Shown here piece after piece: positions 1-36,422 of a stretch of 38,191 bases of DNA; the stretch's first letter is position 1; every line of letters begins with the position of its first letter. Source of the DNA: a virus (Duplodnaviria > Heunggongvirae > Uroviricota > Caudoviricetes); IMG/VR virus record IMGVR_UViG_2778261499_000008, positions 1-38,191 of that record. One strand, given 5' to 3'. The position numbers were made by a program, and so were the translations under genes. Below the pieces are notes generated by a model, which searched no databases, was not told where the DNA came from, and was given only the letters and a program-made list of their open reading frames with translations.

Positions 1-219
1 TCACATCCACATAATTTGCTGCCCTGACGGCAACGGGTGCGGCCTTACGGCGTGGACTTCTCCCGGCTTCACGATGTATCTCTGTACCGACTCATAGGTG
101 ATGAACGTGGCGCTGCAATTCACGTTCTGACACTGGTGATAACGCTCTTTTGTCGTGTCAGTGATATAGCGGCTTGTACGCGCATGTGCGGCATGCTGGC
201 ATAAAGGACAATGAAACAT
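1..219 (-). CDS. ogr: Ogr/Delta-family zinc-finger late-gene transcriptional activator
   Basis: 72-aa product MFHCPLCQHAAHARTSRYITDTTKERYHQCQNVNCSATF... with C-x2-C...C-x4-C zinc finger; start trimmed from ORF 1..282 to internal Met (residue 22), giving the 72-aa length of P2 Ogr. Confidence 0.9.
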   Translation of the reverse strand: MFHCPLCQHAAHARTSRYITDTTKERYHQCQNVNCSATFITYESVQRYIVKPGEVHAVRPHPLPSGQQIMWM

Positions 220-300
220 CGCGAGCACCTCTTCCGGTTTTGTTGATAGTGCCATTCTAGTTAATTTATCCTTATAAAACAAATAGATAAAATAAAAACA

Positions 301-1464
301 TCACTCATCATCTTCTGTTTCGTACTCCACATCAGAAAGCCTGACCTCAAGCTCCAAGGACGTCGTGAAGCCGCTATTATTCAGAAAATGTGTCACCTTA
401 GTGATTGTCCAGTCCTGCTCGTCTATGACGCGCTTAAAGCCTGACACTCTGACCGGCGTTTCCGTGTAAATATCAGCCCGACCAGTGGCAAGGCTGATGG
501 AGAACTCCGCAACGCCCCGTTGCAGTTTGTCCCACTTCGCCTGAGCGGCGCGCATGGCCTGTGCTTTCGTGGCATATACCGTGGTCAGGGCAAAAACGTT
601 ATCAGCCTCACCGGCCATGTATTCACCTTCGCGCGCTTCCGGCACTTTGGGCGCTATCTTCTGCCTGACCGGTTTCGCTTTCGGGTGCTCCAGTGCGCGC
701 AGGTGTTTTTCTTTCTTTTTGCGTTTCAGTTTTACCTTCTGCTTTTGCGGCTTCGGGTCTTTGGTGTGTAACCACTTTGCCGTTACGCCGGTGTAGGCTC
801 CACGGTCAGCAATCGCAAAATGATGACGGTCGCCGTCGCTGCGGGTGATGGTGACCTGCGGGATTTTCTTACCGCTGGCCGTCACCCCCTGCCCCGCTTT
901 GAGAAACAACAATTTTCCCATTTTTACCGACACCTCACCGCCGTTGCGTTCTGCAAGACGGGTCAGGAATTTCGCATCAGACTCCTGCGACTGGTCGATG
1001 TGCGGGATTTTAATTCCGGCCAGTGACGGAGCGACACTGGCTTCCAGCCTGTTACGGGAGGCTATCGCCTCAACAATCGCACCGAGCGTGGTGTCATGCC
1101 AGGAACCTTCACGGCGGGAATTGAGCGTCCCGCGGAAATCTGCACTCCGGGCGCGGATGGTGACCACATCCGGCGCGCCCCGGTGTTCAACCTCATCAAC
1201 GGTGAATTTCCCTTTGCATACCAGGGCAAAACCTTTCCAGCCGATATACACCGTCAGGACAGCGCCACGAACCGGCAGCCCGACCTGCCCGTCGGCATCG
1301 TTCAGTTCAATATCAAGCTGGTCAGCCTCAAAACCCCGGTTATCCGTCAGGGTCATACTCATCAGACGGTCGCTGATATTGCCGGTAATATCCCTGCTGT
1401 CGAGCATCAGCATGTAATCCGGCGTCAGCGTACTGCCTGCATCAAATGTCAGTGCATCCAGCAT
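301..1464 (-). CDS. D: Tail protein gpD (late control gene D protein)
   Basis: 387 aa, same length and position as P2 gpD; lysine-rich central linker KPQKQKVKLKRKKKEK; immediately upstream of ogr. Confidence 0.9.
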   Translation of the reverse strand: MLDALTFDAGSTLTPDYMLMLDSRDITGNISDRLMSMTLTDNRGFEADQLDIELNDADGQVGLPVRGAVLTVYIGWKGFALVCKGKFTVDEVEHRGAPDVVTIRARSADFRGTLNSRREGSWHDTTLGAIVEAIASRNRLEASVAPSLAGIKIPHIDQSQESDAKFLTRLAERNGGEVSVKMGKLLFLKAGQGVTASGKKIPQVTITRSDGDRHHFAIADRGAYTGVTAKWLHTKDPKPQKQKVKLKRKKKEKHLRALEHPKAKPVRQKIAPKVPEAREGEYMAGEADNVFALTTVYATKAQAMRAAQAKWDKLQRGVAEFSISLATGRADIYTETPVRVSGFKRVIDEQDWTITKVTHFLNNSGFTTSLELEVRLSDVEYETEDDE

Positions 1465-1943
1465 TATCCCGCCCCCGTCATACCCGTGAATTTAGTCGCC
1501 ATACTGCCAGCCTTACCGATGAGCGATTCCGCCTGTTTACCGATATCGCCATAAAGCGCGGCCAGTGATTCATCAACGCGGGTGAGCGACAGCGTAAAAT
1601 CAATTTTCCGGGGTGTGCCGTCTGCAAAGAAAATACTCCCTGTTTCACTCACCCTGCTGATGACATACATGCCGTAAATCATGCCGGTGCCATCCAGCAA
1701 CGGCCACGCCCGGCCTTCCTCTGCCATCAGCCTGAGCGTGGTCATCGTCAGCTTCCCGCCGGTCAGTTCAGGATAAAGCACACCGGCAAGCGTGATGTTT
1801 TCCTCACCCACACCGAGAAACTGAAAGGCATCCCGTTTACCGATACAGGAATTTGACGGCCAGCGATAATCTGATTCACGCTGCATGGTCTGGTGTGGCA
1901 GCGTCTGGCGCATAAAAACAAACATACCTAACGCGAGCATCAT
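1464..1943 (-). CDS. U: Tail protein gpU
   Basis: 159 aa, P2 gpU length and position between T and D; start overlaps D region. Confidence 0.88.
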   Translation of the reverse strand: MMLALGMFVFMRQTLPHQTMQRESDYRWPSNSCIGKRDAFQFLGVGEENITLAGVLYPELTGGKLTMTTLRLMAEEGRAWPLLDGTGMIYGMYVISRVSETGSIFFADGTPRKIDFTLSLTRVDESLAALYGDIGKQAESLIGKAGSMATKFTGMTGAG

Positions 1944-1957
1944 TTTTCGTCACCTCC

Positions 1958-4405
1958 TTAACCGTCATGCATCATGCTGGCACGGGCGCGCGCACGTTTA
2001 TCCCGCTCGTATTTTTCGAGCGCATCCTGTAACTGGCGGTCGAGCTGTGTCCCCTGCGCAGTACCGCCCGTCAGGTTGATGTGATATTCGTTTTTACTCT
2101 GGTCCACATAAGAGCGGCCAGCCGGTGCCGTAACTGGCTGATAAGCCTGATAGCCAGCATAAGAGCTGGTCGCCGGAATATAACCACCGGTGCCATACGT
2201 GGCGGCATGAGTTCTGGCGGCAGTCTGGTCAAGCGTGCCTGACTCTTTGTTGATGACGCCGAGTTTTTCCAGTACCCAGTCAATACCGCCGCGCAGTTTG
2301 TTGAACGCATTAAGCGGCAGCATCAGCGCGTCAGCCAGTGCCTGCCCGAACATGACGCCCGTGTCACGGCAACGGTTCAGGGTGTCCTGGGTGGCTTTAA
2401 CCGGGGCAATCAGGTTTTTAAACCACTGCCACGCGGCCTGTAACTTTTCACCCAGCCAGTCAAACAGCGGCTTAAGTGGCGTGAACAGTTCCCCCACCGG
2501 CGCAAATGCCGCTTTCAGCCCTTCCACCACACCGCCAAAGAATGCGCTGACAGGCTCCCAGTATTTACGGATAAGCAACGCCCCGGCGACAATGGCGGCC
2601 ACCACGGCCACAACCGGCCAGCTAATCGCCCCGATGGCCGTCATAACAGCACTGCCAACCGTCGTGAAGATTGCCCCCATTGCGCCTGCTGCCGCGATGA
2701 TAGCATTGATGCCAGTGATAACCGGCCAGGCTACAAGACCAATTGCACCGATGATGCCAATAAGCGCCAGCGCGCCACCGGCAATGATGCCAATGGTTGA
2801 CGCCAGTGATTTGTTTTTCTGGATCCAGCCGTCGAGTTTTAACACATACTTTGTGGCCGTCTGTGTGAGCTTGCGCAGTGCGCCTTCCTGCTGGTCAAAC
2901 AGGTCTGTCCCCACCGCCTCATAAGCGGACTGAAACTCCTTAAAGTCACCGCCGAGGTTGTCCTGCATGATATTTACCAGCTCGGCAGTCTTCCCGTTTG
3001 AGGCTTTAAACGCAGCGGTCAGTTTGTCCAGCTTTCCGGTTGAGGCGGCGGTCATCAGCACGGCGGCGGCTGAGCTGGCCTCCTCCCCGAAAATAGTTTT
3101 CATGTATTCAGCCTGCTGGGCAGTACCGAGCCGGTTTTTCTCAAAACTGGCCTGCATTTCTTTCAGAATGGTAAATATTGGCCGGGTGTTTCCCTTGCTG
3201 TCTGAGGTTTTCACGCCAAGCTCTTTGAGTGCATCCCATGCTTTTCCCGTCGGTGCCTGCAGGCGGCTTAACACGGCACGGCTTCCCGTCCCCGCCATTG
3301 AGCCTGTGATTTTTGCATCATGCAGCGCCCCGACCATTGCGGCGGTTTCTTCAATGCTGACACCGGCATTTTTTGCCACAGGTGCGGCATAGGTCAGCGC
3401 ATCGCTCATACCGTCAAAATCGGCGGCGGTTTTGTTCATCGTCATGGAGAGAACATCCCCGATATGAGCAACCTTATCGTTTGAAAGCTGAAAGGCAGAT
3501 TTCATCCCCATCAGCAGGGCGGCGTTTTCTTCCATCGTGCGACGGTTCGCCAGCGCCATATTCAGCGTGACCGGCGTTGCCGCCTGAATGGCATCAACAT
3601 CCCCACCCGCTTTCGCGATGATTATCTGTGCACCGGCCGCATCATCCGCCGAGGCGGCGGTATTGTCGCCGAGCTGGCGCGCCTGCTTGCGTAGCGCGGC
3701 CATTTCGGCGGAGTCTTTTGCCACACCGAGCACGGCCTGTAATTCTGAGTTTTTCTGCGCAAATTCATAACCGGGCATCAGCAGCTTAACACCGGCCATC
3801 GTTCCCGCCGCCGCAATCCCCACACCGGCAGCGCCCACTGAGGCCATATTTCCGGCCAGCTCCTTTCCTGCCTGATAGCGCTGTTTTACTGCGTTAAGTT
3901 TTGCCTGTTGCGCACTGACACGCGCCAGCGCGTCACGCTGCCGGTTAAGCTGTGCGGTGGTTTCACTGATACGGTTTTTCAGTCCCTGCTCATCATGTGC
4001 AAGATTGCGGGTATTAATTCCCACAGCGGCCAGTTCCCGCTGCTGGCGTTTAACGGAATCCGTCAGGCGGTTATATTTCGCCTGTAAGTCCTCCGCCGCT
4101 CGCTTTGCGGATTCCAGCACTTTCGCCTGAGCACGGGTCGGACGTTCGGTGTTTTTAAACTGTGTGGCAAGGGCTTCGGCTTCCTGCCGTGCCTTTTCAA
4201 GTGCATGACCAGTCACGGCGAGCTGCGCACTGGTCTTGCGAAATCCCTCAATACGGGATGCGTGACCGTTCAGCTCGCGCAGTGATTTTTGTGTTTCCCG
4301 GATATCCCCCGACAGCGACTTGCTCGCTGTGCGGATGGATTTAAACGGGCGGGATGCCTGGTCAACAGCCCTGAGCAATACCTGTAATTTTACATTGTTA
4401 CTCAT
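1958..4405 (-). CDS. T: Tail tape measure protein gpT
   Basis: 815 aa, coiled-coil-rich N-terminal half, Gly/Ala-rich hydrophobic segment, position after E/E'; matches P2 gpT length. Confidence 0.9.
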   Translation of the reverse strand: MSNNVKLQVLLRAVDQASRPFKSIRTASKSLSGDIRETQKSLRELNGHASRIEGFRKTSAQLAVTGHALEKARQEAEALATQFKNTERPTRAQAKVLESAKRAAEDLQAKYNRLTDSVKRQQRELAAVGINTRNLAHDEQGLKNRISETTAQLNRQRDALARVSAQQAKLNAVKQRYQAGKELAGNMASVGAAGVGIAAAGTMAGVKLLMPGYEFAQKNSELQAVLGVAKDSAEMAALRKQARQLGDNTAASADDAAGAQIIIAKAGGDVDAIQAATPVTLNMALANRRTMEENAALLMGMKSAFQLSNDKVAHIGDVLSMTMNKTAADFDGMSDALTYAAPVAKNAGVSIEETAAMVGALHDAKITGSMAGTGSRAVLSRLQAPTGKAWDALKELGVKTSDSKGNTRPIFTILKEMQASFEKNRLGTAQQAEYMKTIFGEEASSAAAVLMTAASTGKLDKLTAAFKASNGKTAELVNIMQDNLGGDFKEFQSAYEAVGTDLFDQQEGALRKLTQTATKYVLKLDGWIQKNKSLASTIGIIAGGALALIGIIGAIGLVAWPVITGINAIIAAAGAMGAIFTTVGSAVMTAIGAISWPVVAVVAAIVAGALLIRKYWEPVSAFFGGVVEGLKAAFAPVGELFTPLKPLFDWLGEKLQAAWQWFKNLIAPVKATQDTLNRCRDTGVMFGQALADALMLPLNAFNKLRGGIDWVLEKLGVINKESGTLDQTAARTHAATYGTGGYIPATSSYAGYQAYQPVTAPAGRSYVDQSKNEYHINLTGGTAQGTQLDRQLQDALEKYERDKRARARASMMHDG

Positions 4406-4825
4406 TCGTGTTTCCGCTTCGCCGGAGCGCCTTTTCGCGCCATGTGATGAGTTCGGTCAGGCTCATGGGATACAGTTCTGATGGCGGCCAGTGAAATATC
4501 ACTGCCACATCCGCCATCAGGTCATCGACCGAGAGATTTTTCGGAAACGTCACTGCACCGAGTTCGGCGACAAAAAACCGACCACCTTACCGGCCAGCGC
4601 CACAAGGTCAGGCAGTTCCAGCGCGGCGACTTCCTGCTCGGTCAGCATCGGTGCCGTCATGCGCGGCAGCACTTTAATCAGTGCATCGACTTCGGAGTTC
4701 GCGACTGCAGCCAGACTGACACCGCGTAGCGTCCCGGCATTGGGTTTCATCAGCGTGACCTGTTCGATAACCTGCTCACCACGTTTGACCGGATTGTCCA
4801 GGGTAATGACGTTTTCTTTGTTCAT
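4398..4825 (-). CDS. E+E': Tail assembly chaperone gpE+E' produced by programmed -1 ribosomal frameshift
   Basis: Slippery heptamer T TTT TTG (minus strand, about 4577..4571) sits in the zero frame at codons Phe-Leu of E (GGT TTT TTG = G-F-L). The -1 frame is open from there to a TAA at 4400..4398 overlapping the T start, giving 85 + 57 = 142 aa, the length of P2 E+E'. The +1 frame stops almost immediately. Confidence 0.8.
4550..4825 (-). CDS. E: Tail assembly chaperone gpE
   Basis: 91 aa ending ...VVGFLSPNSVQ; P2 gpE length and position between FII and T. Confidence 0.9.
   Translation of the reverse strand: MNKENVITLDNPVKRGEQVIEQVTLMKPNAGTLRGVSLAAVANSEVDALIKVLPRMTAPMLTEQEVAALELPDLVALAGKVVGFLSPNSVQ
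4571..4577 (-). other. Programmed -1 frameshift slippery site (T TTT TTG)
   Basis: Heptamer in the correct register relative to the E reading frame; classic tail-chaperone G/GT-type frameshift arrangement upstream of the tape measure gene. Confidence 0.75.
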
Positions 4826-4881
4826 GGTTTTCTCACTTCTGAATCGGGGTTAACCGGTCAGCCAGGCTGACCGGATGAAAA

Positions 4882-5400
4882 TCACAGGCCGATATTGCGG
4901 CGGTGTTGCTCCAGCCGGTCGACGCCGTTCACCTTCTCAATCATGTTGATGGTGTCGATTTCGACCAGCTCCTTACCGTCCATCGTCAGCCGGAAATAGG
5001 TGCAGACCACGGAGATTTTCGACTCGGTGTCTTCTCCCTGTTTGCCCTCGCCGGTGTCGATTTCTTTCTGACGTCCACGCATGACCACCTCGACGGCCAC
5101 CGTTTCGCCGGTATCGTCGCGCTGGTAAGAGCCTGCAAAACGAATCGGTACGGCATCCACACCGGTTGCGGCGTAAAGCTCCCAGATAACCGAATCCGGG
5201 AAGCCACCGAGCGACCACTCCATTGACAGCGCATCGTCATCAAGGCCGAGGTCTACCGGTGCGCTGCCGTTCATCCCCGCACCGCGATAGTTTTCGAGCT
5301 TACGGGTCAGTTTTGGCAGCGTGACGGACTTCGCGACGCCCTGATAGTTGTAGCCGTTCAGAAAGACGTTCATTAACTTGAGTTTGCGCGGCATTGCCAT
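4882..5400 (-). CDS. FII: Tail tube protein gpFII
   Basis: 172 aa, P2 FII length and position downstream of the sheath gene. Confidence 0.9.
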   Translation of the reverse strand: MAMPRKLKLMNVFLNGYNYQGVAKSVTLPKLTRKLENYRGAGMNGSAPVDLGLDDDALSMEWSLGGFPDSVIWELYAATGVDAVPIRFAGSYQRDDTGETVAVEVVMRGRQKEIDTGEGKQGEDTESKISVVCTYFRLTMDGKELVEIDTINMIEKVNGVDRLEQHRRNIGL

Positions 5401-5412
5401 CGGTCAGGCTCC

Positions 5413-6603
5413 TTAATTGCTGTTAACCGAGGTGACCAGACTTGCCAGGTATTTATCAGTAATACGCTGGCGCAGGGTCAGGTTTTCGAGAGGAGGCACC
5501 GGGGTATAGTCGTAGTCGATATACAGTTTTCCGGCCTTGAGGGTTTCCGCATCGTTGGATTCTTCGCTGAACCAGCAGGTCGCATCCACGATATAGCCGT
5601 TTGTTTTCAGCTCACGGAATTTGGCATTGATGCCGTCAACGATGTCGCGAATCAGCGTTGCGGTGATGGGCTTGTCCACCGCCCACATGTGCGCCTCAGC
5701 CATCGTGTCGGCCAGCACCTGCGCGGTGCGGGTGTAGTTTTCAAAGAGGAACAGCGGGTCATCAGAGCAGGTACGGTTACCCCAGAAGCGGAAACCGTCA
5801 CGGCGAATCAGCGTAGTGACGCCTGACTCGTTAAGCAGGTCAGCATCGGTGCCGGACTCCTGCAAATCCCAGAATACAGATGCGCTGATGCCGGTAACAC
5901 CGTTTACCCCAACGTTGGACAGCGTTTTATGCCAGCCCTGCTCCTGGTCGATTTTAGCGCGCAGACCCAGCGCACGGGCGGTGGCATGCGCGGTGGCGGT
6001 GGTACTGGTGACCGTATCCCATGCGAGGAAATCCGGCCAGATGACCATCAGCTCACGCTGGCTGAAATTCTGGCGGTAGGCTTTCACCTCGGAAATGGTC
6101 TTACAGCCCCATGCGCTGATATATCCGAAAGCGCGCAGCTTCTGACAGACTGATGCCAGTGCAACAGCCACCTCTTTGGTATCCAGCCCCGGCACACCAA
6201 GAATACGCGGTTTAACACCGGTTACCGACTCCGCCGCCAGCAGGGCTTTCAGTCCGGTGTACTGACCGTTTTCGTCAGTGGTGCCGATAATATTAGAAAC
6301 GGTCTGCGCGAGTTTCGTTTCCTCGTCATCACCGGTGCCGTCTTCCACGCGCACGACAACGGTGACCGGTTTTGACTGGTCAGCGATGGCCTGCAACGAT
6401 GCCGCCAGCGTGCCTTTTTTACCGGCCTTTGCAATTGCACTCTGCACATTGGTAATCAGCACAGGTTTATTGAGGGGGAAGGTTTCCGCATCCGCATCGC
6501 TGGCCGTGCAGACCATGCCGACAATGGCAGTGGATACGGTGGAAATGACGCGTGTGCCGTCGTTAATCTCCAGCACCTGCACGCCGTGATGATAGTCACT
6601 CAT
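5413..6603 (-). CDS. FI: Contractile tail sheath protein gpFI
   Basis: 396 aa, P2 FI length; GGAG Shine-Dalgarno 8 nt upstream of ATG; first gene of the FI-FII-E-T-U-D block. Confidence 0.9.
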   Translation of the reverse strand: MSDYHHGVQVLEINDGTRVISTVSTAIVGMVCTASDADAETFPLNKPVLITNVQSAIAKAGKKGTLAASLQAIADQSKPVTVVVRVEDGTGDDEETKLAQTVSNIIGTTDENGQYTGLKALLAAESVTGVKPRILGVPGLDTKEVAVALASVCQKLRAFGYISAWGCKTISEVKAYRQNFSQRELMVIWPDFLAWDTVTSTTATAHATARALGLRAKIDQEQGWHKTLSNVGVNGVTGISASVFWDLQESGTDADLLNESGVTTLIRRDGFRFWGNRTCSDDPLFLFENYTRTAQVLADTMAEAHMWAVDKPITATLIRDIVDGINAKFRELKTNGYIVDATCWFSEESNDAETLKAGKLYIDYDYTPVPPLENLTLRQRITDKYLASLVTSVNSN

Positions 6604-6696
6604 CCGTTTAACTCCGTGGTTAATGGGTGCAACTATTTTCTGTTGTGCAGAGCATGAGGCGCTATTTGACCTGGCTGGTCAGTGGATGAAACAACA

Positions 6697-6726
6697 GATA
6701 AAGAAAAGGCGGGCAATCCGCCCGCC
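6697..6726 (-). terminator. Intrinsic terminator-like hairpin (GGCGGGC-N5-GCCCGCC followed by a T-tract on the minus strand)
   Basis: Perfect 7-bp GC stem with 5-nt loop, followed on the minus strand by TTTTCTTTAT; lies about 90 nt upstream of FI, at the cargo/phage junction. Confidence 0.5.
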
Positions 6727-7035
6727 TGTCCTGACTTGCACTCACTCATTTTCCAACTGACGGTTTACATAGCCCAAACGTTATCAAATCTGACAGTCTG
6801 CTTTGAGCGAGGAGCGGACCAAACCCGGCCAACTGACTCTTAAAGGGGCCGCAGGAATTTTTCGTCTGAACTTTCGAAGCTCCTCTCCCTGAAGACAGAA
6901 AACTTCTGTGTGCTGTGGGAATATTGAATCTTTGCCTTAGATATAAATAATTTTATCCCGCCTGAAGTTTACATTATTTTATTTATCTGTTTTTCTAAAT
7001 CAGACTGCACTCCTTACTTAAATCAGGAGCCAGTC

Positions 7036-8235
7036 ATGCCATTTGTTATTTATGTGTTTACTATCAGTGCCTTTGCGCTCGGACTCGCGGAATTTGTCCC
7101 CATTGGGCTGACAGACGTTATGGCTCAGGGGTTGTGTGTGGGTGTGGAGCAGACCGGGGCAGCGGTTACAACCTATGCACTGGGGGCAACGTTCGCGGCA
7201 CCCGTACTGTCTGCGCTGACAGCAAGCTGGAGCCGGAAAAATGTAATGCTTACAACTGCCGTTGTGTTTACTGCCGGTAGTCTGGCGGCCGCGTTTGCAG
7301 CCACATTACCTCAGCTCCTGTTAGCGCGGTTCATTGCTGGTCTGGGACACGGCCTGTTTCTGGCTGCGGCATCCAGTACCGCAGCTCGTCTTGCTGGACC
7401 GGGTAAAGCAGGCAGAGCGGTGGCTGTGGTATTTGGTGGCTTTACTCTGGCGATGGCAATCGGCGTACCGCTGAGTACATGGTTGGGGGGGGTGGTCTCA
7501 TGGCGTCCAGTTCTCGGCGCTATTGCCGCTTTTGGCGCGTTCGGATTCCTTGGACTGTTGTTCGGTATGAAAGATCCCGTACGCAGCGTGCCCGGTGAAC
7601 ATAGTGACTCAGCAATGCAGAATATCGGCATGCTGTTTAACCGTAAGTTGCTGGCCGGCGCGCTGGTTACGGTGCTGGCGTATGCAGGCTCGTTTACGGA
7701 TTACACCTTTATCGCACCTATTCTGACGCAGGTGACAGGGGTTACCGGAGCAACGGTGAGTCTGTTTATGCTGGTTTACGGTATTACAGCTGCGGTAGGT
7801 AATATTCTTGGTGGGAAACTTACCGACAGCATGGGGGTTAATCGTGCCAATATACTCATCATTAGCGGCATTGTTGTTGTCGTGCTTGGTATGTGGCTGC
7901 TGTCATCCTCACCGGTGAGCATGGGCATTCTGGTTGCGCTGCTGGGTATGGTGACATTTGCCGCAGTGCCGGCACTGCAGGCCCGTCTGATTGGTGTCGC
8001 TGAGCAACATGCTCCTCATGCGCATGGTGTTGCTGCCGGCCTGAATATTGCGGGCTTCAACTCAGGTATAGCGCTGGGATCAGTACTGGGCAGCATTACT
8101 ATAAGCCACGCCGGTATCGTGTATACCGGTATCAGCGGTGCGATTGTTTCTCTGCTCGGCCTGCTGTTGCTGCTTGCACAAATCCGTCGCAGCCACAGTC
8201 GTAAATTTCAACAGGTTAAAATCGTAGGCCAGTAA
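7036..8235 (+). CDS. MFS-family transporter (12-TM efflux/permease type)
   Basis: 399 aa, highly hydrophobic with Gly/Ala-rich helices throughout, typical MFS topology; AGGAG RBS upstream. Not a P2 gene. Confidence 0.75.
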   Translation: MPFVIYVFTISAFALGLAEFVPIGLTDVMAQGLCVGVEQTGAAVTTYALGATFAAPVLSALTASWSRKNVMLTTAVVFTAGSLAAAFAATLPQLLLARFIAGLGHGLFLAAASSTAARLAGPGKAGRAVAVVFGGFTLAMAIGVPLSTWLGGVVSWRPVLGAIAAFGAFGFLGLLFGMKDPVRSVPGEHSDSAMQNIGMLFNRKLLAGALVTVLAYAGSFTDYTFIAPILTQVTGVTGATVSLFMLVYGITAAVGNILGGKLTDSMGVNRANILIISGIVVVVLGMWLLSSSPVSMGILVALLGMVTFAAVPALQARLIGVAEQHAPHAHGVAAGLNIAGFNSGIALGSVLGSITISHAGIVYTGISGAIVSLLGLLLLLAQIRRSHSRKFQQVKIVGQ

Positions 8236-8246
8236 AGGGAGGTTAT

Positions 8247-8939
8247 ATGCTTACCCGTGAAAATATGCTTAATGGCACATTTGTCAGGGTGCATGAAGCG
8301 CTGCTCCCGGCGAATATGCTCTGGGACGCTGAAAAAATACGCGCATCAATGAACTCTACTCTGGAGGAGCGCCCGACGGGTGCTCCTGTCTGGATATTTG
8401 CCTACGGGTCATTGATGTGGAATCCCGTGCTGGCGATTGAAGAAATGCAACGGGCCCGTCTGAAAGGATGGCAGCGCAGTTTCTGCATTCGTTTGATATC
8501 CGGACGAGCGACTCCTGATGTCCCCGGCAGGATGTTATCGCTCGACGAAGGTGGAATTACCGAAGGTATTGCGTTCAGACTGCCGGAATCGACTCTTATT
8601 AATGAGCTGGAAATTGTCTGGACGCGCGAGATGATAACCGGTCTTTACCGTCCGGTCTGGGCAGACGTTTCGCTAGGAAACGGTGAGGAAATTCAGGCGC
8701 TGGCTTTCGTATCAGACAGACTGCATCCGCATTATGAACAGGACAATCTTACAGCGACCGTAGCGTTGAGCATCGCATCTGCCCGTGGAGACATTGGCAC
8801 GAATGCAGATTATGTATGGAAACTGCAGGCCACTCTGGGTGCGTTGGGAATACGGGATGATTACGTGAGTGAACTGGCCCTTGCTCTGCATGAGGCTCCC
8901 TGTAACGATAAACTTCATCAGCGAGGCGCTTCACTATGA
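8247..8939 (+). CDS. ChaC-like gamma-glutamylcyclotransferase family protein
   Basis: 230 aa with the N-terminal FAYGSLMWNP motif characteristic of the ChaC/GGCT fold; GGGAGG RBS upstream. Confidence 0.65.
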   Translation: MLTRENMLNGTFVRVHEALLPANMLWDAEKIRASMNSTLEERPTGAPVWIFAYGSLMWNPVLAIEEMQRARLKGWQRSFCIRLISGRATPDVPGRMLSLDEGGITEGIAFRLPESTLINELEIVWTREMITGLYRPVWADVSLGNGEEIQALAFVSDRLHPHYEQDNLTATVALSIASARGDIGTNADYVWKLQATLGALGIRDDYVSELALALHEAPCNDKLHQRGASL

Positions 8940-9817
8940 GCCATCTGAGCCATCTGCGAACGTTTCTTGAGGCCTATCGCTCTGGCTCCTTTTCAAAGGC
9001 GGCAGAACTACTGGGCATCACTCAGCCCGCGGCGTCACAGCATATCCAGTCTCTTGAGACTCTGGTTGGTAAGCGTCTGTTTATCAGGCAGGCCAGAGGC
9101 GTGACGGCAACCGAAGCTGCGGATGAGCTTGCCCGCTCAGTTTCACCCTTCATTGATGGTCTGGAAGAAAAGCTGTCCTCTTTCCGGTCAGGCTCTGTAC
9201 GCGGGGGAACAATTAATCTGGCAGGACCGCCAGATTTTATTCATTCCCGGCTTGGGACAGTAATGGCTCCACTAATGAAGGAGGGGTATCGCCTACGCTT
9301 TCATACCGGCAATAAGCAACGTATTTATTCCCTTTTGCATGACGGGAGCGTCGATCTCGCTGTTACCGCATCTATGCCTGATGACCGTCTGTACGGCTAT
9401 GCACATCTACTGACTGAACGCATGCTCCTTGTTCATGCTCCCGCCATGTCAGAGATCATCGGATCAGAACCTGGTGCTGAAACGCTTGCCTCATTACCGC
9501 TGATTGCTTATGACGAAGAGTTGCCACTGATTAGAGCGCTCTGGGCCTCCATGTTTCAGAGAGCCCCTGAGATGCAGGCTACATTCACCATTCCGGATTT
9601 ACGTATTATCCGCGACTTGGTCTGTGACGGCCACGGGTGGACAGTGCTGCCGGATTATCACTGTGACAATGACCTGAAAAGTGGTCGCCTGATTTCAGTG
9701 ACACCTGCAGACCTCGCTCCGACTAATCATCTTTATCTGGTCTGGAACAAAAGGACGGCTAATAACAGCCGAACCGCCTATGTTCGGGATTACATTCTTA
9801 AAACGTTTCCGCGTTGA
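8936..9817 (+). CDS. LysR-family transcriptional regulator
   Basis: 293 aa; N-terminal HTH LRTFLEAYRSGSFSKAAELLGITQPAASQHIQSLE typical of LysR regulators, C-terminal substrate-binding region; start overlaps the ChaC-like stop (ATGA). Confidence 0.85.
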   Translation: MSHLSHLRTFLEAYRSGSFSKAAELLGITQPAASQHIQSLETLVGKRLFIRQARGVTATEAADELARSVSPFIDGLEEKLSSFRSGSVRGGTINLAGPPDFIHSRLGTVMAPLMKEGYRLRFHTGNKQRIYSLLHDGSVDLAVTASMPDDRLYGYAHLLTERMLLVHAPAMSEIIGSEPGAETLASLPLIAYDEELPLIRALWASMFQRAPEMQATFTIPDLRIIRDLVCDGHGWTVLPDYHCDNDLKSGRLISVTPADLAPTNHLYLVWNKRTANNSRTAYVRDYILKTFPR

Positions 9818-9947
9818 TGTTTGAAACGGATGATTGGCGATGCGTATCATAAGTTACGTATGTCCGCTTCTGGCACAAAGCAGACGCCCACTCTCACGCG
9901 AATGCTTTGCCCTTGACTTGCCAACAACCGTATCGCTTGCTCCGCAA

Positions 9948-11240
9948 CTATGGTTTTTTATTAGAATCTTCGCCACTAAATAAATTATAATAAATTGATT
10001 TTATTAGATATCTGTCAGAATCTATATGGTCAGCACGAGTAGCATGCTCTAATGTTTCAAATGCTAGGGTTTGTGCGGCTTCAGCAAAAATTCCAGGCCA
10101 ACCCTTACTCAGCATCGACAGTCCTTTAAGTACCCTTATCTGAATTTCCCTCATACTGGCACCATCGCGCGCAACAGGTGAGAAAAAGTCTTCAAGTAGA
10201 TCGTTATTCTGAAGTGGTGCAACATGTACAGAAGGATATTTCACTTCTATTTCATCAGATTTATTCTGCGCGTAAGCGGAAAGTATACGTACACCTCTGC
10301 CAATGACATCAATGGCGGTTCCAGGATCGTTCACTGCGGGGGAAAGGGCTCGGCAGGCTATTTCGGCCATGACGCTAAGACAAAATCGGGGGTCCTGAGC
10401 AAATGAACGTACATCCGAGACAATAATCGTCTCAAGTAAATCGGTGCTGATTGATGACTCCTGGCCCTGACTCAGGTACAAAACTGGCGTGGACGGATGT
10501 ATGAAACTGCCCGGCTGCGCCACGAGGTATACATGACGGGGATCATTGGTCAGCAGCTTGCTGAGTTTCACCATATCAACATATTCAACATAGCCAATCT
10601 TTTTCGGATAAACTGCAACCGTTCCTTTCGGCTGTTCATTGTTCTCAAGCCATGGATATCCGCCGAGACAGGGATTTCTTGCTCTCGCAATAAATGTTTC
10701 GATGGCCGCCTGTTCTACTTTTGCCGTTGTCTCACCAACCCTCCCCAGAGAGGTCAAATGCTGTATCCAGCGAAGCAATGTGATGAGGATTAAGGCAATG
10801 ACAACCAGTGTTACAATGAATAAAATGACTCTCCCCCTTTCTCCATAAGCTCCCATATTGAGGGCAATAATCCCTACCAGACTGAAGAGAAAAGAACCGA
10901 TGAAGGTGGCCAGTACATTTTGTGTGGTGACGTCTTCAACAACTAAACGAGTAGCTCTGGGAGTCACATTAGTAGTGGCTGAACCGTAGGCTGTGACCAT
11001 GATGCTCAGCGAAAATGTGGTCACTGCCAGCATACTCGATGCCAGTATGTTCAGAATGTTATCGACTGCTTCCGCACCAACCTTCACGGAAACCGACTCA
11101 GGTATCATTGATTTAAAAAGAATTGATAAAAGGGCCGTTATTATTGCGACAATTGCGAATAACGTTGCCCTGAACCATAGTTTTTTAAATGTCTGCTTCA
11201 GCATCCATTTCCAGCGTGAAATCATTCTGCATTCCCTCAT
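9948..11240 (-). CDS. Integral membrane protein of unknown function (possibly DUF2254-like)
   Basis: 430 aa; N-terminal third contains several predicted TM helices, followed by a soluble domain; AT-rich codon usage. Family assignment is from memory of architecture only. True start may be an internal Met a few codons downstream. Confidence 0.4.
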   Translation of the reverse strand: MRECRMISRWKWMLKQTFKKLWFRATLFAIVAIITALLSILFKSMIPESVSVKVGAEAVDNILNILASSMLAVTTFSLSIMVTAYGSATTNVTPRATRLVVEDVTTQNVLATFIGSFLFSLVGIIALNMGAYGERGRVILFIVTLVVIALILITLLRWIQHLTSLGRVGETTAKVEQAAIETFIARARNPCLGGYPWLENNEQPKGTVAVYPKKIGYVEYVDMVKLSKLLTNDPRHVYLVAQPGSFIHPSTPVLYLSQGQESSISTDLLETIIVSDVRSFAQDPRFCLSVMAEIACRALSPAVNDPGTAIDVIGRGVRILSAYAQNKSDEIEVKYPSVHVAPLQNNDLLEDFFSPVARDGASMREIQIRVLKGLSMLSKGWPGIFAEAAQTLAFETLEHATRADHIDSDRYLIKSIYYNLFSGEDSNKKP

Positions 11241-11249
11241 ATTGCAGCC

Positions 11250-11281
11250 GGGATAAATAAATGCCGCCTCTGTGGCGGCAT
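11250..11281 (-). terminator. Rho-independent terminator downstream of the BCCT transporter gene
   Basis: Hairpin ATGCCGCC-N5-GGCGGCAT followed on the minus strand by TTATTTATCC, immediately 3' of the BCCT stop. Confidence 0.6.
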
Positions 11282-11288
11282 GTTGCTG

Positions 11289-13292
11289 TTAACGAACCAG
11301 ATGCAGGAAGTGCAGGTGTTTTTCGTACTGGTCCAGTATGTCATTAATCAGCTGTTCCTGATTCCAGCCCATTACATCATAATTTTGGCCGCCCTCTTTG
11401 AGATAGACTTCAGCGCGATAATATCGATGTTGTTCACTCTGCTGCTCATCATTATCCAGCGCAGCGAGCGCGAAGGTCGGTGAGTTATACCCGCGAAGTC
11501 TCACTTCATATATATAATTCAGCTCGTTGCCCAAATCGACTTCAAGGCGAATACGATCCTCGGCGGCGTCACTGATGTGGCTTATCGTTCCCTGCTTGTT
11601 AAGTTCCTCCTGAACCAGCGTCATGGCGGGTTGGATAATGTCGTCCATAAAACGTTTCACAAGAGAGCGCTTCGGCAAATACGCGATATTGCGTAACCTT
11701 CTCTGCCAGGGAATTGGGTTACGTGCAGCCGTAGGAGCAATAGTCGCCATGCTAAGGCTTTCACGCTTGGTCAAATCCCGACGCAGGGCTTTTAACAGTC
11801 CGTATATGGATATTAATAAGATAACTGAGAAGGGCAATGCACTCGCTATCGTTACGGTTTGCAACGCACTCAGCCCCCCTGCGATCAGCAGGGCAATAGC
11901 AACAACGCCCATGAGCGATGCCCAGAAAATTCGCTGCCAGACGGGCGTGTTTGCCACCCCACCTGATGCCAGAGTATCCACAACCATTGCCCCCGAATCA
12001 GCAGACGTTACAAAGAAGACGATGACCATCGCCATTGCAATGAATGACAGCACGGAAGAGAACGGGAAATGCTCCAGGAAATTAAACAGGGCAAGCGCAA
12101 CATCCTGCTGAACGGTATTGGCGAGGTCAGTGGCGCCCTGGTTCATGATGAGATAGATGGCGCTGTTTCCAAACACCGTCATCCACATGAGCGTAAAGCC
12201 GGCGGGAACAAACAACACGCCAGTCACGAACTCACGAATTGTCCTGCCGCGGGAAACGCGTGCAATGAACATACCTACAAACGGCGACCATGAAAGCCAC
12301 CATCCCCAGTATAATAATGTCCAGCCCCCCAGCCAGTTGCTCGACTTGGGTTCATACGCGTAAAGGTTGAACGTTTTACTCACCAGTTCCGACAGATAAC
12401 CACCCGTATTTTCCACAAATGACTTCAGCAGAAGCACAGTGGGACCCAGGCACAAGACCAGCGCCAGGAGCAACACCGCCAGGCCCAGATTAAGCTCAGA
12501 CAGGATGCGTATTCCCTTGTCCAGGCCGGACACCACCGAAATCGTCGCTAACCCCGTGATGACCACGATCAAAATGACCTGTACCGTTTCATTGATGGGC
12601 ACGCCGAAAAGATGGTTCAAACCGGCATTCACCTGCAATACACCGTAACCCAGCGATGTTGCAACGCCAAAGACAGTGCCTATCACGGCGAAGATATCAA
12701 CCGCGTGGCCTATAGGCCCGTAAATGCGATCGCCGATAATGGGATAGAGCGCAGAACGCAGCGTTAAAGGCAGACCGTGACGGTAACTGAAAAAGGCCAG
12801 AATCAGCGCCACGATGGCATAAATTGCCCATGCGTGCAGACCCCAGTGGAAGAACGTCAGGCGCATGGCTTCCTTCGCTGCCGCAACGGTCTCTGGAGTG
12901 CCGACAGGTGGCGAAAGATAATGCATCACAGGTTCGGCAACGCCAAAGAACATCAGGCCGATCCCCATCCCTGCCGAAAAAAGCATCGCGAACCAGGAGT
13001 GGTAGCTGAAATCAGGCTGCGCATGGTCTGGGCCCAGCTTTATATCACCGTAACGTGAGAGTCCAAGGAACGTGACGCTCAGTAAAATCAGGGCCACAGC
13101 AAGTATGTAGAACCAGCTGGCATTCGTGAAGATTTGTTGCTGAAGTAGTTTAAAATTTTTGTCGGCGACATCCGGGAATACGGCGGCAAAGGCGACAAGA
13201 AGGAAAATTAGCAAAGCAGATGTAAAGAATACCGCTTTGTTAATCTGGCTTGTAGACTTCTTTGGGGTTGTATCATTTTCACTCATAATCAT
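11289..13292 (-). CDS. BCCT-family transporter, BetT-like (choline/betaine/carnitine type) with long cytoplasmic C-terminal tail
   Basis: 667 aa; contains the BCCT signature region ...WTLLYWGWWLSWSPFVGMFIARVSRGRTIREF...; overall length and C-terminal extension resemble BetT. Confidence 0.85.
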   Translation of the reverse strand: MIMSENDTTPKKSTSQINKAVFFTSALLIFLLVAFAAVFPDVADKNFKLLQQQIFTNASWFYILAVALILLSVTFLGLSRYGDIKLGPDHAQPDFSYHSWFAMLFSAGMGIGLMFFGVAEPVMHYLSPPVGTPETVAAAKEAMRLTFFHWGLHAWAIYAIVALILAFFSYRHGLPLTLRSALYPIIGDRIYGPIGHAVDIFAVIGTVFGVATSLGYGVLQVNAGLNHLFGVPINETVQVILIVVITGLATISVVSGLDKGIRILSELNLGLAVLLLALVLCLGPTVLLLKSFVENTGGYLSELVSKTFNLYAYEPKSSNWLGGWTLLYWGWWLSWSPFVGMFIARVSRGRTIREFVTGVLFVPAGFTLMWMTVFGNSAIYLIMNQGATDLANTVQQDVALALFNFLEHFPFSSVLSFIAMAMVIVFFVTSADSGAMVVDTLASGGVANTPVWQRIFWASLMGVVAIALLIAGGLSALQTVTIASALPFSVILLISIYGLLKALRRDLTKRESLSMATIAPTAARNPIPWQRRLRNIAYLPKRSLVKRFMDDIIQPAMTLVQEELNKQGTISHISDAAEDRIRLEVDLGNELNYIYEVRLRGYNSPTFALAALDNDEQQSEQHRYYRAEVYLKEGGQNYDVMGWNQEQLINDILDQYEKHLHFLHLVR

Positions 13293-13619
13293 TTATTCCA
13301 TTAATTAAATCCGCACTGGATAGAAGGTACTACCTCTCACAGAGTAGCAAAGTTCAACTGGCTATGCGGGGTTAATCGGAATGCATGGTGGAATGAGTGC
13401 CGATACAAATCATCCTATATTCTAAGGAGTTTTAAGTTACTCAGCCTGCCAATTACTGGGGCATTTAATTTGTATGATCTGTATCAAAGCTGGGATATAA
13501 GTTAAGTGAAGTATATTAGGCACGAATTACCAGCGTCTGCTCTTGGCACAGAGCGGACTGTCAGATTAGGCTTTACTCTGTGCCATAGATATGTAAGCTC
13601 ACACCAGAGTTCATACAAC

Positions 13620-14147
13620 TTATTGCGGCATTTCCGGCCATTCAGGATTTGCAGGATCCACACGACTGACCACAACGCTGTAGCGTTCCCAAGCCTCCAG
13701 CCGTGTGCGCTCCTCCTCTGTTGCCATGTTCAGCCTGACAGCACGCTCTAGCGGCAAAATCACGGATTCAGCATCTGCAAGAAGTCTGGCTTTCCGGTTT
13801 TCTGCCTGCAGTTGCAATTCCTCTGCCGTATAAATTCGTTTGATCACTGTGCCATCCTTAAACATCCAGTTCCCTGAAATGTCCGCCCGTCGGTTAGCAG
13901 TAATATCCGCCACTTCAACAACACTTAATCCATCCGGTCTGATAGCTGTCACATCCTTTTCCACATAGCGGATGATATTATCTTTGTCGTACGCTATTTT
14001 TATCGTGTCATCAGCAAAATACTTTTGTTCTTCGTACCAGTTCTTACCATCTTCTGAAAAAAACCAGACAACATCAAAGTTCTTTGTCAATTGATATTGT
14101 TCAACCGTTTTTGGATTACCCGCCGTAATATTTTTTAAATGCTGCAT
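13620..14147 (-). CDS. G: Tail fibre assembly chaperone gpG
   Basis: 175 aa, P2 gpG length, immediately downstream of the tail fibre gene H. Confidence 0.85.
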
Positions 14148-14150
14148 AAA

Positions 14151-16268
14151 TTATACCTGCGCCACGTTATACCATGTCCCGTTAATGTATTTCTGCACCG
14201 GCCTGTAATATACGCCACCAATGTTATCGGCAGAGTTTGAGCCGGTATCCTGAACAATAATGCCGGTATATACGCAACCTGACGGAGCCTGATGCGTCCA
14301 TGTAGTACCATTATTTGCTGGTTTATATGTAGATGCACCGCCCAGTCGCATGTCTCTCACATAACGTGAATCTGACTCAGCTTTGGTGTATGCACCAACA
14401 TCTCCCGCTGAGGGTTTATGAGCAGTTGTATATAGTTGCGCCCATCCAGACCAGTTAGCATCTGTGGTATCTCGTCGGGAGCGAATATATGCCGGAGCAT
14501 GAGCACCGCTGGTTCCACTCCAGCCAATAAGTAACTCACCCTCTCCTACTGCGGTTACGCCAGTGAGATGAAGCACATTACCATAGGCTGTTGGGTAGCC
14601 ATTGTTGTATGCCTCATACATCTGAATACCTGGTGTACCCTTTGAGCTCCCACCTAATGCAGTAACACGGTTTCTGGATACCAGTGTATTAATATTTATA
14701 TCGGCAGAACCATCAAATCTGACACCATTAATATTTCTTGCATTCGCTAACTTCGTTGCTGTTGCAGCATTTCCTGAAAGGCTGGAAATAAATGGATGTG
14801 AGCAGTAATAACCGCGCCCATTTTTAAAATCCAGAATAGCCTGTGCGTTCGTGCTTTCTGTAGCGGGATTAGTTGCCCCCCACTTATATGTCGTTTGACC
14901 GACGACATAATCCTCTGTCGGAACAATAACCGTTAGCCCTTCCTCTGCAAGAATTTGTACAGGGAAAGCTCTGGCTTCAACATAAAAAACACTACATACA
15001 TCATCATCTTTCAGGCTTGTAACAATGGAATGGATTGAACGCTCATTAGTCTGATACGTCCAGAAATAACCTGCCGCATATGAACCACGATCGGTCCAGC
15101 CTCCGGGCATAACCATGCCATTAAACTCGCAGTTATTCATTACATAATCGCCGTTATAACAACCAGTTGAAATAACGACGCGGGATGCCATTTCTCCTGA
15201 AAGGCTGGCAGCACGGCGAAAGATAACGGGATACCACTTCCCGGCAACGACATTTGCAGGGGCTGCAAACGAATACTTTCGCATTCCCTTTTTCTTATCC
15301 ACTTCACCTTTGCTGTAAACATTAATGTTACTCAGGAAGCGTCCTTTATCAGGAATATCCGCACCGTTCTGATCTTTCTGAAGACGTTTTTCAGCATTGT
15401 CATAGGCAGACTTCACCGCTTTTGGTGTTGCAGCCAGCGTTTCAGAATCACTGTTGGTGGCGCTACTGAGCTGGACAAGACCTTTTCGCGCTGTGGTGGC
15501 ATCCTGTGCAGTGTATTTCCCGTTAGCAAGGTCATACGCTGTCTTAACCGCCTTTGGCGTTGCCGCAAGCGTTTCAGAATCGCTGTTGGTGGCGCTACTG
15601 AGCTGGACAAGGCCTTTTCGCGCGGTGGTGGCGTCCTGTGCAGTGTATTTCCCGTTAGCAAGGTCATATGCTGCTTTTACCGCTTTTGGTGTTGCGGCGA
15701 GTGTTTCAGACGTGCTGTTGGTCGCACTGCTTAACTGAGTAAAACCTTTGGCGGTCAGCGAGGCGTCCGGGTGACGTCGTGACTGTTCATGTTCTGCAAT
15801 TTTGTCATCAACGTAATCCTGCGTTGCCATCACCGTTGTGGTGTCAATGGTCAGCGCCACTGAGGCCACACTGCTGACGATGATGACCATGCGGCAGGTC
15901 TGCGAACGCCCTGAGCCTTCGGCAAGAGCTGGCTTATAACTTTCAGCCATGTTCGCCACGGCAATTAACGTTCCAGCATCATCGTACAGGCCAAGCTCAC
16001 GCATCCAGAAACCGCCCACCTCCGGCGGAATAACCAGCTCTGCGATAATATAATTACTGTTTCGTTTGTCTTGGCTGATTTTGTTCAGCGCATGTCGCCA
16101 GACTTCGTGGATAAGCCCGGTCTGTCCGGCATCCGGGACAGGCAATTTACCACCGCCATCCCCGACGGCCATCGTGGTAATGTTGACCTTCCGCCCTCCC
16201 GGCGCGGTTGCCGCTGCCAGCTTTGCTGCACCAGCAGTGGTGATAACGGTTCTGAATTTTGTGCTCAT
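14151..16268 (-). CDS. H: Tail fibre protein gpH
   Basis: 705 aa; conserved P2 H N-terminus (MSTKFRTVIT...), internal tandem repeats of the SSATNS...AATPKAVK motif, divergent C-terminal receptor-binding region. Confidence 0.9.
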   Translation of the reverse strand: MSTKFRTVITTAGAAKLAAATAPGGRKVNITTMAVGDGGGKLPVPDAGQTGLIHEVWRHALNKISQDKRNSNYIIAELVIPPEVGGFWMRELGLYDDAGTLIAVANMAESYKPALAEGSGRSQTCRMVIIVSSVASVALTIDTTTVMATQDYVDDKIAEHEQSRRHPDASLTAKGFTQLSSATNSTSETLAATPKAVKAAYDLANGKYTAQDATTARKGLVQLSSATNSDSETLAATPKAVKTAYDLANGKYTAQDATTARKGLVQLSSATNSDSETLAATPKAVKSAYDNAEKRLQKDQNGADIPDKGRFLSNINVYSKGEVDKKKGMRKYSFAAPANVVAGKWYPVIFRRAASLSGEMASRVVISTGCYNGDYVMNNCEFNGMVMPGGWTDRGSYAAGYFWTYQTNERSIHSIVTSLKDDDVCSVFYVEARAFPVQILAEEGLTVIVPTEDYVVGQTTYKWGATNPATESTNAQAILDFKNGRGYYCSHPFISSLSGNAATATKLANARNINGVRFDGSADININTLVSRNRVTALGGSSKGTPGIQMYEAYNNGYPTAYGNVLHLTGVTAVGEGELLIGWSGTSGAHAPAYIRSRRDTTDANWSGWAQLYTTAHKPSAGDVGAYTKAESDSRYVRDMRLGGASTYKPANNGTTWTHQAPSGCVYTGIIVQDTGSNSADNIGGVYYRPVQKYINGTWYNVAQV
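15400..15790 (-). repeat. About three tandem copies of a ~132-bp in-frame repeat inside the tail fibre gene (approximate coordinates)
   Basis: DNA shows near-identical blocks (…ttcagaatcactgttggtggcgctactgagctggacaag… recurring); protein shows 44-aa units GLVQLSSATNSDSETLAATPKAVKxAYDLANGKYTAQDATTARK repeated. Confidence 0.8.
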
Positions 16269-31205: not shown

Positions 31206-31209
31206 TTAT

Positions 31210-31233: not shown

Positions 31234-31245
31234 ATGACATAAGTT

Positions 31246-36420: not shown

Positions 36421-36422
36421 AA

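Follow-up and report, generated by a model that had tools for sequence, protein, structure and literature searches.

The P2-like prophage described here, a stretch of 38,191 nucleotides from the IMG/VR record IMGVR_UViG_2778261499_000008 (the window, at its full length), carries five intact non-phage genes between the tail sheath gene FI and the tail-fibre assembly gene G, the interval known in phage P2 as the Z-region. This segment very probably consists of two mobile, pre-formed gene cassettes, bounded by short palindromic sites, in the P2 Z-region cassette locus, a reading that we put forward jointly with a Rac-type donor, a cassette swap, and a candidate enzyme. It belongs to a known kind, the P2 Z-region cassette replacement. 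Judging from sequence comparisons, a recent double exchange replaced the resident cassette with a two-cassette block of the Rac prophage, and the oddly large "metabolic" insert is explained by a single, recent swap of cassettes between prophages that are unrelated to each other. We propose, with a probability of about 0.45, that the palindromes serve as core sites in a cassette-exchange system, integron-like and so far uncharacterised, that is run in trans by a recombinase that is itself a mini-cassette, and that the window is a product of this system. As part of the same proposal, the system would range over P2-like phages, Rac-like and other lambdoid prophages, P1-like, IncF, and IncY plasmids, and genomic islands, with relatives in soil and marine Proteobacteria.

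The five genes were identified from the list of open reading frames (ORFs) and by Pfam and NCBIfam profile searches, which confirmed the positions and identities given in the original prediction, an earlier annotation made from the sequence alone. That annotation took the whole of 6604–13619 as cargo. The block is real, but pairwise comparison with P2-like phages identified 6604–6795 and 13559–13619 as ordinary P2 backbone and confined the foreign DNA to 6796–13558 (6.76 kb); homology to the backbone of other P2-like phages extends up to 6819 on the FI side and from 13535 onward on the G side. The absence of transposase and integrase genes held up, as no ORF for a transposase, an insertion sequence (IS), or an integrase was found in the G–FI interval by the ORF list and Pfam. 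The annotation had also noted no obvious flanking repeat. In fact, three copies of a 24-bp imperfect palindrome, GTCYGCT-N10-AGCRGAC, sit exactly at the three cassette borders (Table 1), compared with 0.02 copies expected by chance, and no shuffled sequence reached three.

P2 carries these sites on both sides of fun(Z), where they are unannotated in the P2 record. GenBank records of the "proviral Z-region" from a survey of P2-like coliphages, dating from 2002–2004 (AJ512682, AJ512683, and neighbouring records) annotate a left and a right inverted repeat, and the inner ends of these repeats in AJ512682 and AJ512683 are exactly the 24-mers. The bounding repeats of the Z-region are prior art. The paper tied to these records, by Nilsson et al. 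from 2004, proposes site-specific recombination in its title. Our sequence analysis defines the 24-bp core, the crossover at its centre, two spacer types, a candidate recombinase, and the Rac donor, some of which the work of Nilsson et al. may already contain. A literature search for the site sequences gave no match and concept searches gave no description of such a system, with Nilsson 2004, Odegrip 2006, and Ly 2004 lying outside their scope.

The origin of the segment could be traced at both junctions. Complete E. coli chromosomes contain a block with 100% identity to window positions 6795–13558; of 5,426 E. coli genomes, 294 (about 5%) have a match that spans at least 80% of the query. The original prediction suggested looking for the five genes as chromosomal genes elsewhere; in E. 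coli the block sits not in the core chromosome but within Rac, a lambdoid prophage at ttcA, with hokD on one side and a DUF977 gene on the other, and there it is bounded and divided by the same three sites. Some Rac copies contain IS insertions inside the block, and many genomes with the block also match the P2 flanks elsewhere. In the suggested comparison with related P2-like prophages, the sibling prophage L126 is 100.0% identical to the window over positions 1–6820 and 99.7% identical from 13536 on, and it holds a different, single-gene cassette of 1,582 bp; the identity breaks at the sites. The left boundary site of the window is a hybrid, with an outer half of P2 type (T at position 4, where Rac has C) and an inner half of cassette-A/Rac type. 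The right boundary site is also a hybrid, combining an inner half of cassette-B type with an outer half of P2 type (G at position 17, where Rac has A), and the internal site is the left end of plasmid-borne cassette B. The identical stretches common to the sibling and Rac parental sites are 11 bp (left) and 7 bp (right). These hybrid sites, combined with the sibling and Rac identities, are the signature of a recent double exchange. A P2-like prophage with an earlier 1.6-kb single-gene cassette received both cassettes en bloc from a Rac-type lambdoid prophage by a double crossover at the two outer sites, with the breakpoints within the sites.

The two cassettes were also found apart from each other. 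Cassette B alone is present at 99.8% identity on many plasmids of E. coli, Shigella, Klebsiella, and Enterobacter, and a 92% identical copy of cassette A, with both sites and the same two site types, is carried by a Klebsiella IncF plasmid. The junction between cassette B and the P2 flank recurs in four complete genomes of three E. coli strains and in two IMG/VR contigs, the order in strain S10 being FI, hypothetical gene, DUF2254, BCCT, and G. The hypothetical protein WP_000161640.1 adjoins cassette B in the P2-like prophage of S10 (L256, 4193–9138) and is encoded one array position from cassette B on the IncY plasmid pPO125 (L002, 4249–11699), whose array also contains a small recombinase and another gene. 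Its location next to or one position from cassette B in the two contexts implies multi-cassette arrays common to phage and plasmid. Within Rac, a degenerate site copy, GTCCGCCACTGGCTCAGAGCTGAC, lies near TolA-like genes (L003, 6556–6579; L004, 7892–7915), and may be a trace of another cassette locus in this prophage that has since decayed.

The position of the crossover was mapped by comparing 364 pairs of sites, not independent events, in which one flank is common to both members and the DNA on the other side is unrelated. The differences fall mostly at positions 1–9 and 12 of the site and at most 8 of 364 at positions 13–24, and the rightmost difference lies at position 12 or lower in 353 pairs. 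Positions 16, 17, and 21 are polymorphic among sites, yet they are near-invariant within the flank-sharing pairs. The limitation of differences to positions up to 12 implies that each half-site belongs to the adjoining DNA and that exchange is confined to the centre. As judged from these sequences, the crossover map is strong but not conclusive evidence for site-specific over homology-driven recombination.

The layout of the site, with inverted arms of 7–9 bp around a spacer with a conserved central GC (9-6-9 geometry), together with the central exchange fits the core site of a tyrosine recombinase; serine-type exchange at the central GC fits too. Single-strand hairpins of the sites are weak (−3 to −6 kcal/mol, z-scores −0.5 to −1.3) and no better than those of shuffled sequences, which favours a duplex protein-binding site, and a structure-driven mechanism through hairpins or cruciforms was dropped as the main model because the single-stranded folds are weak. 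When compared by eye with the consensus sequences of dif/XerCD, attC, hix/gix, the LexA box, the sigma-54 promoter, CRP, and Chi, the sites matched none of them.

A stringent scan of IMG/VR with the 24-mer, for which about zero matches are expected by chance, revealed more than 118 site-carrying loci. Among the matches listed, 41 are P2 G–FI loci, 41 are of Rac type, and 36 are in other contexts, including spots beside umuC-like or DprA-PRTase genes, where the cassettes encode TIR effector, GNAT, glyoxalase/bleomycin-resistance, LysE, and SRAP proteins. The segments from site to site comprise about 70 types; among the loci listed, about 25 cassette types occupy the P2 locus and four segment types occur in both P2 and Rac backbones at identical length. 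The arms and the central GC are conserved across 132 site variants, although the search did not constrain the central GC. The spacers form two families, TGGCAC and GAGCGA. At the P2 locus, the GAGCGA type lies towards FI and the TGGCAC type towards G; at the Rac locus, they lie towards hokD and DUF977, respectively. A doublet of ~66 bp, in which a semi-conserved 18-bp linker separates one site of each type, often links neighbouring cassettes, and the sites also border modules on plasmids.

In E. coli, the element occurs at 1–6 places per genome in 42% of the genomes, always intergenic and confined to accessory DNA. A genome-wide repetitive extragenic palindromic (REP) element, a kind that has hundreds of intergenic copies throughout the core genome and a RAYT transposase, was ruled out for E. 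coli by this low copy number and the restriction to accessory DNA. The same 24-mer, often in several copies per genome, was also found in many Enterobacterales and in Xanthobacteraceae, Pseudolabrys, Hyphomicrobiales, Nitrosomonadaceae, and other metagenome-assembled genomes (MAGs), where ~0.1 matches are expected by chance for the whole collection and some phylum assignments rest on MAG binning. There, accessory genes are followed by clustered sites that repeat every 45 bp and comprise two or three kinds of unit, and some Alpha- and Betaproteobacterial MAGs have higher copy numbers than E. coli. Such clusters in Alpha- and Betaproteobacterial and other soil MAGs (L148, L198, L249; L135–L254) keep strictly to the 45-bp period, have GGGTCA-, ACCCCC-, and GTGCCA-type spacers and reach 16–20 units in 8 kb, often past TctC/ABC substrate-binding genes and near contig ends. 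Ordinary accessory metabolism genes are the neighbours of the sites in 120 genome loci.

A candidate for the exchange enzyme is a tyrosine recombinase of 200 amino acids (aa), encoded in site-bounded arrays on plasmid pPO125, at a lambdoid DUF977/hokD locus, and in a genomic island; WP_023147793.1 is one representative, with the catalytic Tyr in an RYLG motif. It consists of the catalytic domain only (PF00589), falls into no curated family, and resembles Xer, invertase, and IntI proteins at low score; on integron-integrase models it reaches 17 bits, compared with cutoffs of 265–435. We gathered recombinase loci by protein homology alone and obtained 26 viral loci encoding a protein of at least 83% identity. 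Sites are present on both sides of the gene in 21 of them, on one side in four, and on neither in one (L304). Across 12 different arrays, no protein other than the recombinase is conserved; the genes on both sides differ each time. The recombinase module extends from the middle of a TCGCTC-type site, located ~60 nt before the ATG, to the middle of a GTGCCA-type site that comes immediately after a hairpin following the stop codon. A module beginning and ending at site centres implies that the recombinase gene is itself a cassette of ~0.7 kb, with atypical inner half-sites. The module is found in 17% of complete E. coli genomes, and the recombinase family is large and highly conserved across Gammaproteobacteria.

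The association persists in more distant homologues, and those of 55–67% identity retain site halves at fixed positions. In 74 metagenomic loci with recombinase homologues of 58–67% identity, positional tests against shuffled sequences located the outer half-site CCAnnAGCGGAC downstream, between +15 and +59, in 22 loci, whereas shuffles gave 2.2 (maximum 8), and a mirrored half-site peak lies 80–99 nt upstream of the ATG (10 vs 0.64 in shuffles). A 55%-identity homologue lies 82 nt from a unit of the Alphaproteobacteria type. A loosened pattern of the full site around the metagenomic homologues was uninformative (134 matches vs 92 in shuffles), and a "63%" recombinase clade without sites, considered as a counter-example, turned out to consist of truncated, decayed copies of the main clade. 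Immediately before the ATG of the recombinase gene there is also a hairpin in which the Shine-Dalgarno sequence is paired (L259, 7980–8046; 5' untranslated regions in L261–L408). One example is ACTCAAATCTCC-N9-GGAGATTTGAGT. In divergent homologues other sequences form the same structure, suggesting that the recombinase is controlled at the level of translation. We give about an even chance that this protein, on the sequence evidence, is the exchange enzyme. The exchange would then be site-specific recombination at the palindrome centre, catalysed in trans by the 200-aa recombinase, as the correlation between gene and sites suggests. The enzyme would be supplied by another element in the cell because it is absent from the window.

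The main rival to the recombinase as exchange enzyme is short-homology recombination, for example by Rac RecET. The same cassette swap would then proceed without a dedicated enzyme, which we consider possible but rather unlikely. Its route would be either recombination of the short-homology or relaxed homologous type, through Rac RecET, Red-like annealases, or RecA, or else a template switch within the repeats. The window lacks a recombinase, and the 7–11 bp common to the sibling and Rac sites are compatible with micro-homology joins. Temperate phages are reported to gain DNA from defective prophages via Rad52-like recombinases (PMC3945230). An enzyme-free swap leaves unexplained, however, why the palindromic arms and the central GC are kept across the 132 variants, why the exchange point is central despite the polymorphic positions 16, 17, and 21, why the two spacer types keep fixed sides at the P2 and Rac loci, and why site halves occur at both ends of the recombinase gene across 55–95% divergence. 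The weakness of the single-strand hairpins also argues against structure-driven template switching. The other rivals are far less probable. The original prediction offered capture of the host chromosome, which might occur by illegitimate recombination or aberrant excision, and the genes do resemble ordinary housekeeping-type transporters and regulators. This explanation is very improbable, as the block is not core but consists of Rac-prophage cassettes present in about 5% of complete E. coli genomes, cassette B is on plasmids, the cargo is in the middle of the genome and not beside att, and both junctions fall in conserved palindromic sites that border the normal P2 cassette. An assembly chimera joining P2-like and Rac prophages at common repeats has even less to recommend it: although the junction of cassette A with P2 is unique so far and strains with both elements exist, the identity between the parental sites spans no more than 11 bp on the left and 7 bp on the right, much less than the k-mers that assemblers use, each junction is an exact reciprocal hybrid, and cassette B occurs in the P2 Z-regions of independent complete genomes and contigs. 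Equally slight is the chance of IS-mediated composite transposition, as in Tn6062 on IncHI1 plasmids. Cassette B is the Tn6062 cargo (PMC3139670) and some copies of the Rac block have IS insertions, but no IS or transposase lies in or beside the segment, the borders are palindromic sites, and there are no target duplications.

Several observations weigh against the main explanation, in addition to the non-independence of the site pairs. The window encodes no recombinase gene for the exchange, and RecE/RecT are encoded in Rac, next to the donor block. No recurring transposase or recombinase was found near the sites in the 120 genome loci (8-kb windows). The link between enzyme and site is co-occurrence only, and the recombinase could be a mere cargo gene. 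The junction between the P2 flank and cassette A was found elsewhere in 0 of 5,426 genomes and 0 IMG/VR contigs. Finally, alignment with P2 places cos near window position 29003 and gives a genome of about 38.4 kb, close to the 38 kb anticipated in the original prediction, whereas P2 has 33.6 kb and the sibling about 33.3 kb. Sequenced phages sampled with a capsid gene of at least 95% identity have 28.9–34.8 kb, leaving the 38.4-kb genome roughly 10% above any sampled relative. The prophage may not be packageable, or may be transmissible only after DNA loss.

With the Z-region cassettes of the 2002–2004 records, the segment shares the G–FI locus, the sites at the inverted-repeat ends, and the replacement of the foreign ORFs between them; the flanking backbone stays P2-like while the content varies, which holds here too. 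Whereas the earlier cassettes have 1–2 kb and one or two ORFs, the present segment has 6.7 kb, two cassettes, and five genes, and the Rac donor is identified. Integron cassettes are promoterless and co-oriented, and attC sites have the box consensus RYYYAAC ... GTTRRRY. Like integrons and clusters of attC sites lacking integron integrases (CALINs), the arrays described here are bounded by imperfect palindromes and associated with a tyrosine recombinase, many arrays lack it, and cassettes are common to different replicons. Unlike in integrons, the sites are 24 bp without these boxes and are exchanged at their centre, the cassettes, which would have their own promoters, are multi-gene and occur in either orientation, and the recombinase of about 200 aa is itself a cassette and not a fixed platform. 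Integrons have an intI integrase adjacent to attI and a cassette promoter, and no integrase was found in or near the segment.

In the pdif modules of Acinetobacter plasmids, XerC/XerD sites flank cargo modules that move without a recombinase of their own. The cassettes resemble them in being discrete modules with short sites of inverted arms and a 6-bp spacer and without their own recombinase, but the site is unrelated to the dif consensus, and the hosts are phages, prophages, and enterobacterial plasmids. Another parallel is heterospecific lox/FRT cassette exchange, an engineering concept. The spacer types GAGCGA and TGGCAC are on fixed sides of the locus, and exchange at both sites swaps the DNA between them while the donor replicon stays unintegrated. 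Here, however, it would be a natural system, and spacer-specific pairing is hypothetical. REP elements, bacterial interspersed mosaic elements (BIMEs), and the Neisseria NIME and dRS3 elements are likewise short palindromic units of two or three types clustered with fixed linkers, whereas the present sites occur at 1–6 places per E. coli genome in accessory DNA only, and no RAYT-type transposase was found near the sites in the 120 genome loci. Compared with a moron (a unit of promoter, gene, and terminator), the segment has a terminator past betU, a LysR regulator, and a GC content of 44–56% against 55–58% in the adjoining late genes, while a promoter scan of the segment was not above chance.

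Tn6062 shares with cassette B the same two genes, betU and a gene for a DUF2254 membrane protein, and osmotolerance was demonstrated there (PMC3139670). It differs in being mobilised by flanking IS1 (PMC3139670), whereas the present cassette has no IS and palindromic borders. The Tn6062 cargo on IncHI1 typhoid plasmids consists of two coding sequences, betU and the membrane protein gene, and the cloned fragment enabled growth of S. Typhi in 0.8 M NaCl; betU, originally identified in uropathogenic E. coli, encodes an uptake system for glycine/proline betaine (PMC3139670). Cassette B corresponds in sequence to this cargo. One published Tn6062 cloning primer matches exactly at window 9961–9977, and the second has an approximate match only, about 3.4 kb away. 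The original prediction called the transporter BetT-like with its own terminator, and the NCBIfam BetT model NF007399 (752 bits vs a cutoff of 695), the RefSeq label (BetT/BCCT), and a hairpin just past the gene agree with it. Its suggestion of a lysogenic-conversion type of osmoprotection cargo in the Z/fun locus is in line with the Tn6062 match, and osmoprotective lysogenic conversion by cassette B is well supported by this analogy. In this copy, BetU would import glycine/proline betaine under osmotic stress.

For cassette A, the MFS transporter is predicted from its sequence to be of the efflux type, accompanied by a ChaC-like enzyme and its own LysR regulator. The LysR ATG overlaps the ChaC stop (ATGA), confirming the translational coupling noted earlier. 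Family membership would make the operon a self-regulated unit for transport and gamma-glutamyl (glutathione-type) degradation. PADLOC gave no defence-family match for the ChaC-like protein, the DUF2254 protein, or the 447-aa protein of the sibling prophage, and an Rfam scan of 6400–13800 gave no match at E ≤ 1. The claim that the Z/fun locus is variable is correct, but the view that it usually carries small defence genes is too strong, as transport cargo is carried by the Yersinia phages vB_YpM_115/117, the three E. coli strains, and the two IMG/VR contigs. The Yersinia phages, isolated as virions, have an MFS transporter, a hypothetical gene, and a LysR regulator in the Z-region. vB_YpM_115 (L001, 2705–6669) is a 33.7-kb P2-like phage with a nepI-like MFS gene and a pgrR-like LysR gene, in which the G-side site is intact and the FI-side site degenerate.

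Table 1. Features of the G–FI interval and its flanks, in window coordinates.
Feature	Position	Strand	Basis or remark
FI tail sheath gene, backbone flank	5413..6603	-	Pfam Phage_sheath_1/1C; 98% aa identity to P2 FI
Terminator-like hairpin	6707..6727	-	9-bp stem, 7 GC pairs, T-run; same sequence in P2
Left boundary site, GAGCGA-spacer type	6796..6819	.	Halves GTCTGCTTTGAG / CGAGGAGCGGAC
Cassette A, MFS-ChaC-LysR operon, 3,042 bp	6820..9861	+	Same-length cassette in Rac prophages
MFS transporter, DHA1-like, Cmx/NepI/AraJ-like	7036..8235	+	Below all equivalog cutoffs
ChaC-family gamma-glutamylcyclotransferase	8247..8939	+	Pfam ChaC 3e-35; RefSeq name gamma-glutamylcyclotransferase
LysR-family regulator	8936..9817	+	Profile searches
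Internal site between cassettes, TGGCAC-spacer type	9862..9885	.	Halves GTCCGCTTCTGG / CACAAAGCAGAC
Cassette B, betU and DUF2254 gene, 3,649 bp	9886..13534	-	Tn6062 cargo
DUF2254 membrane protein	9948..11240	-	Pfam DUF2254 1.6e-92
Terminator-like hairpin just past betU, bidirectional	11261..11281	.	Hairpin scan
BCCT betaine transporter BetU, 667 aa	11289..13292	-	Pfam BCCT 7e-199, positions 1-485 of 485
Right boundary site, TGGCAC-spacer type	13535..13558	.	Halves GTCTGCTCTTGG / CACAGAGCGGAC
G tail-fibre assembly gene, backbone flank	13620..14147	-	Pfam Caudo_TAP

Overall, the window looks like a complete P2-like prophage that extends from the stop codon of ogr to that of int, in which all essential P2 genes are full length at 94–100% aa identity. 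The backbone aligns with P2 at 96–97% with four exceptions, namely the immunity/int region, the H C-terminus with G, the tin/old position, and the G–FI interval. The int-C-cox region (36422–38191) is heteroimmune to P2, with 43–52% aa identity. The H C-terminus and G (13620–15520) are a mosaic replacement that is only 74–78% identical to P2; G-like sequences are common to P1/Mu U genes, and sibling prophages encode a G protein identical to that of the window. A terminator-like hairpin of the P2 backbone, lying between the left site and the promoter region of FI, shields the late FI operon from the cassette locus. At the tin/old position beside cos (29247–32397), there is a low-GC (35–38%) gene pair, one member encoding a 652-aa GHKL-ATPase protein that matches PADLOC type II restriction endonuclease models, and the convergent partner a C5-cytosine methyltransferase. 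From their sequences, they look like restriction-modification-type defence cargo in a known P2 defence hotspot, and no palindromic sites of the Z-region type flank the pair. A further low-GC (34–38%) ORF on the opposite strand between S and V (18778–19563) is the homologue of P2 orf30 (98% aa identity) and has no Pfam or PADLOC match.

In summary, the value of this case lies in a clean before/after/donor triplet, which exposes a cassette-exchange system with a testable enzyme hypothesis. The predicted phenotype is betaine-dependent osmotolerance of the lysogen, and the oversized insert raises the question of the packaging limit at about 38.4 kb. The P2 Z-region, the Rac hotspot, and plasmid modules draw on one cassette pool of defence, transport, and resistance-type genes. 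If the link between enzyme and site is real, the 20-year-old suggestion of site-specific recombination for the P2 Z-region becomes directly testable, and phages and plasmids would have an integron-like route to trade accessory genes without transposases.

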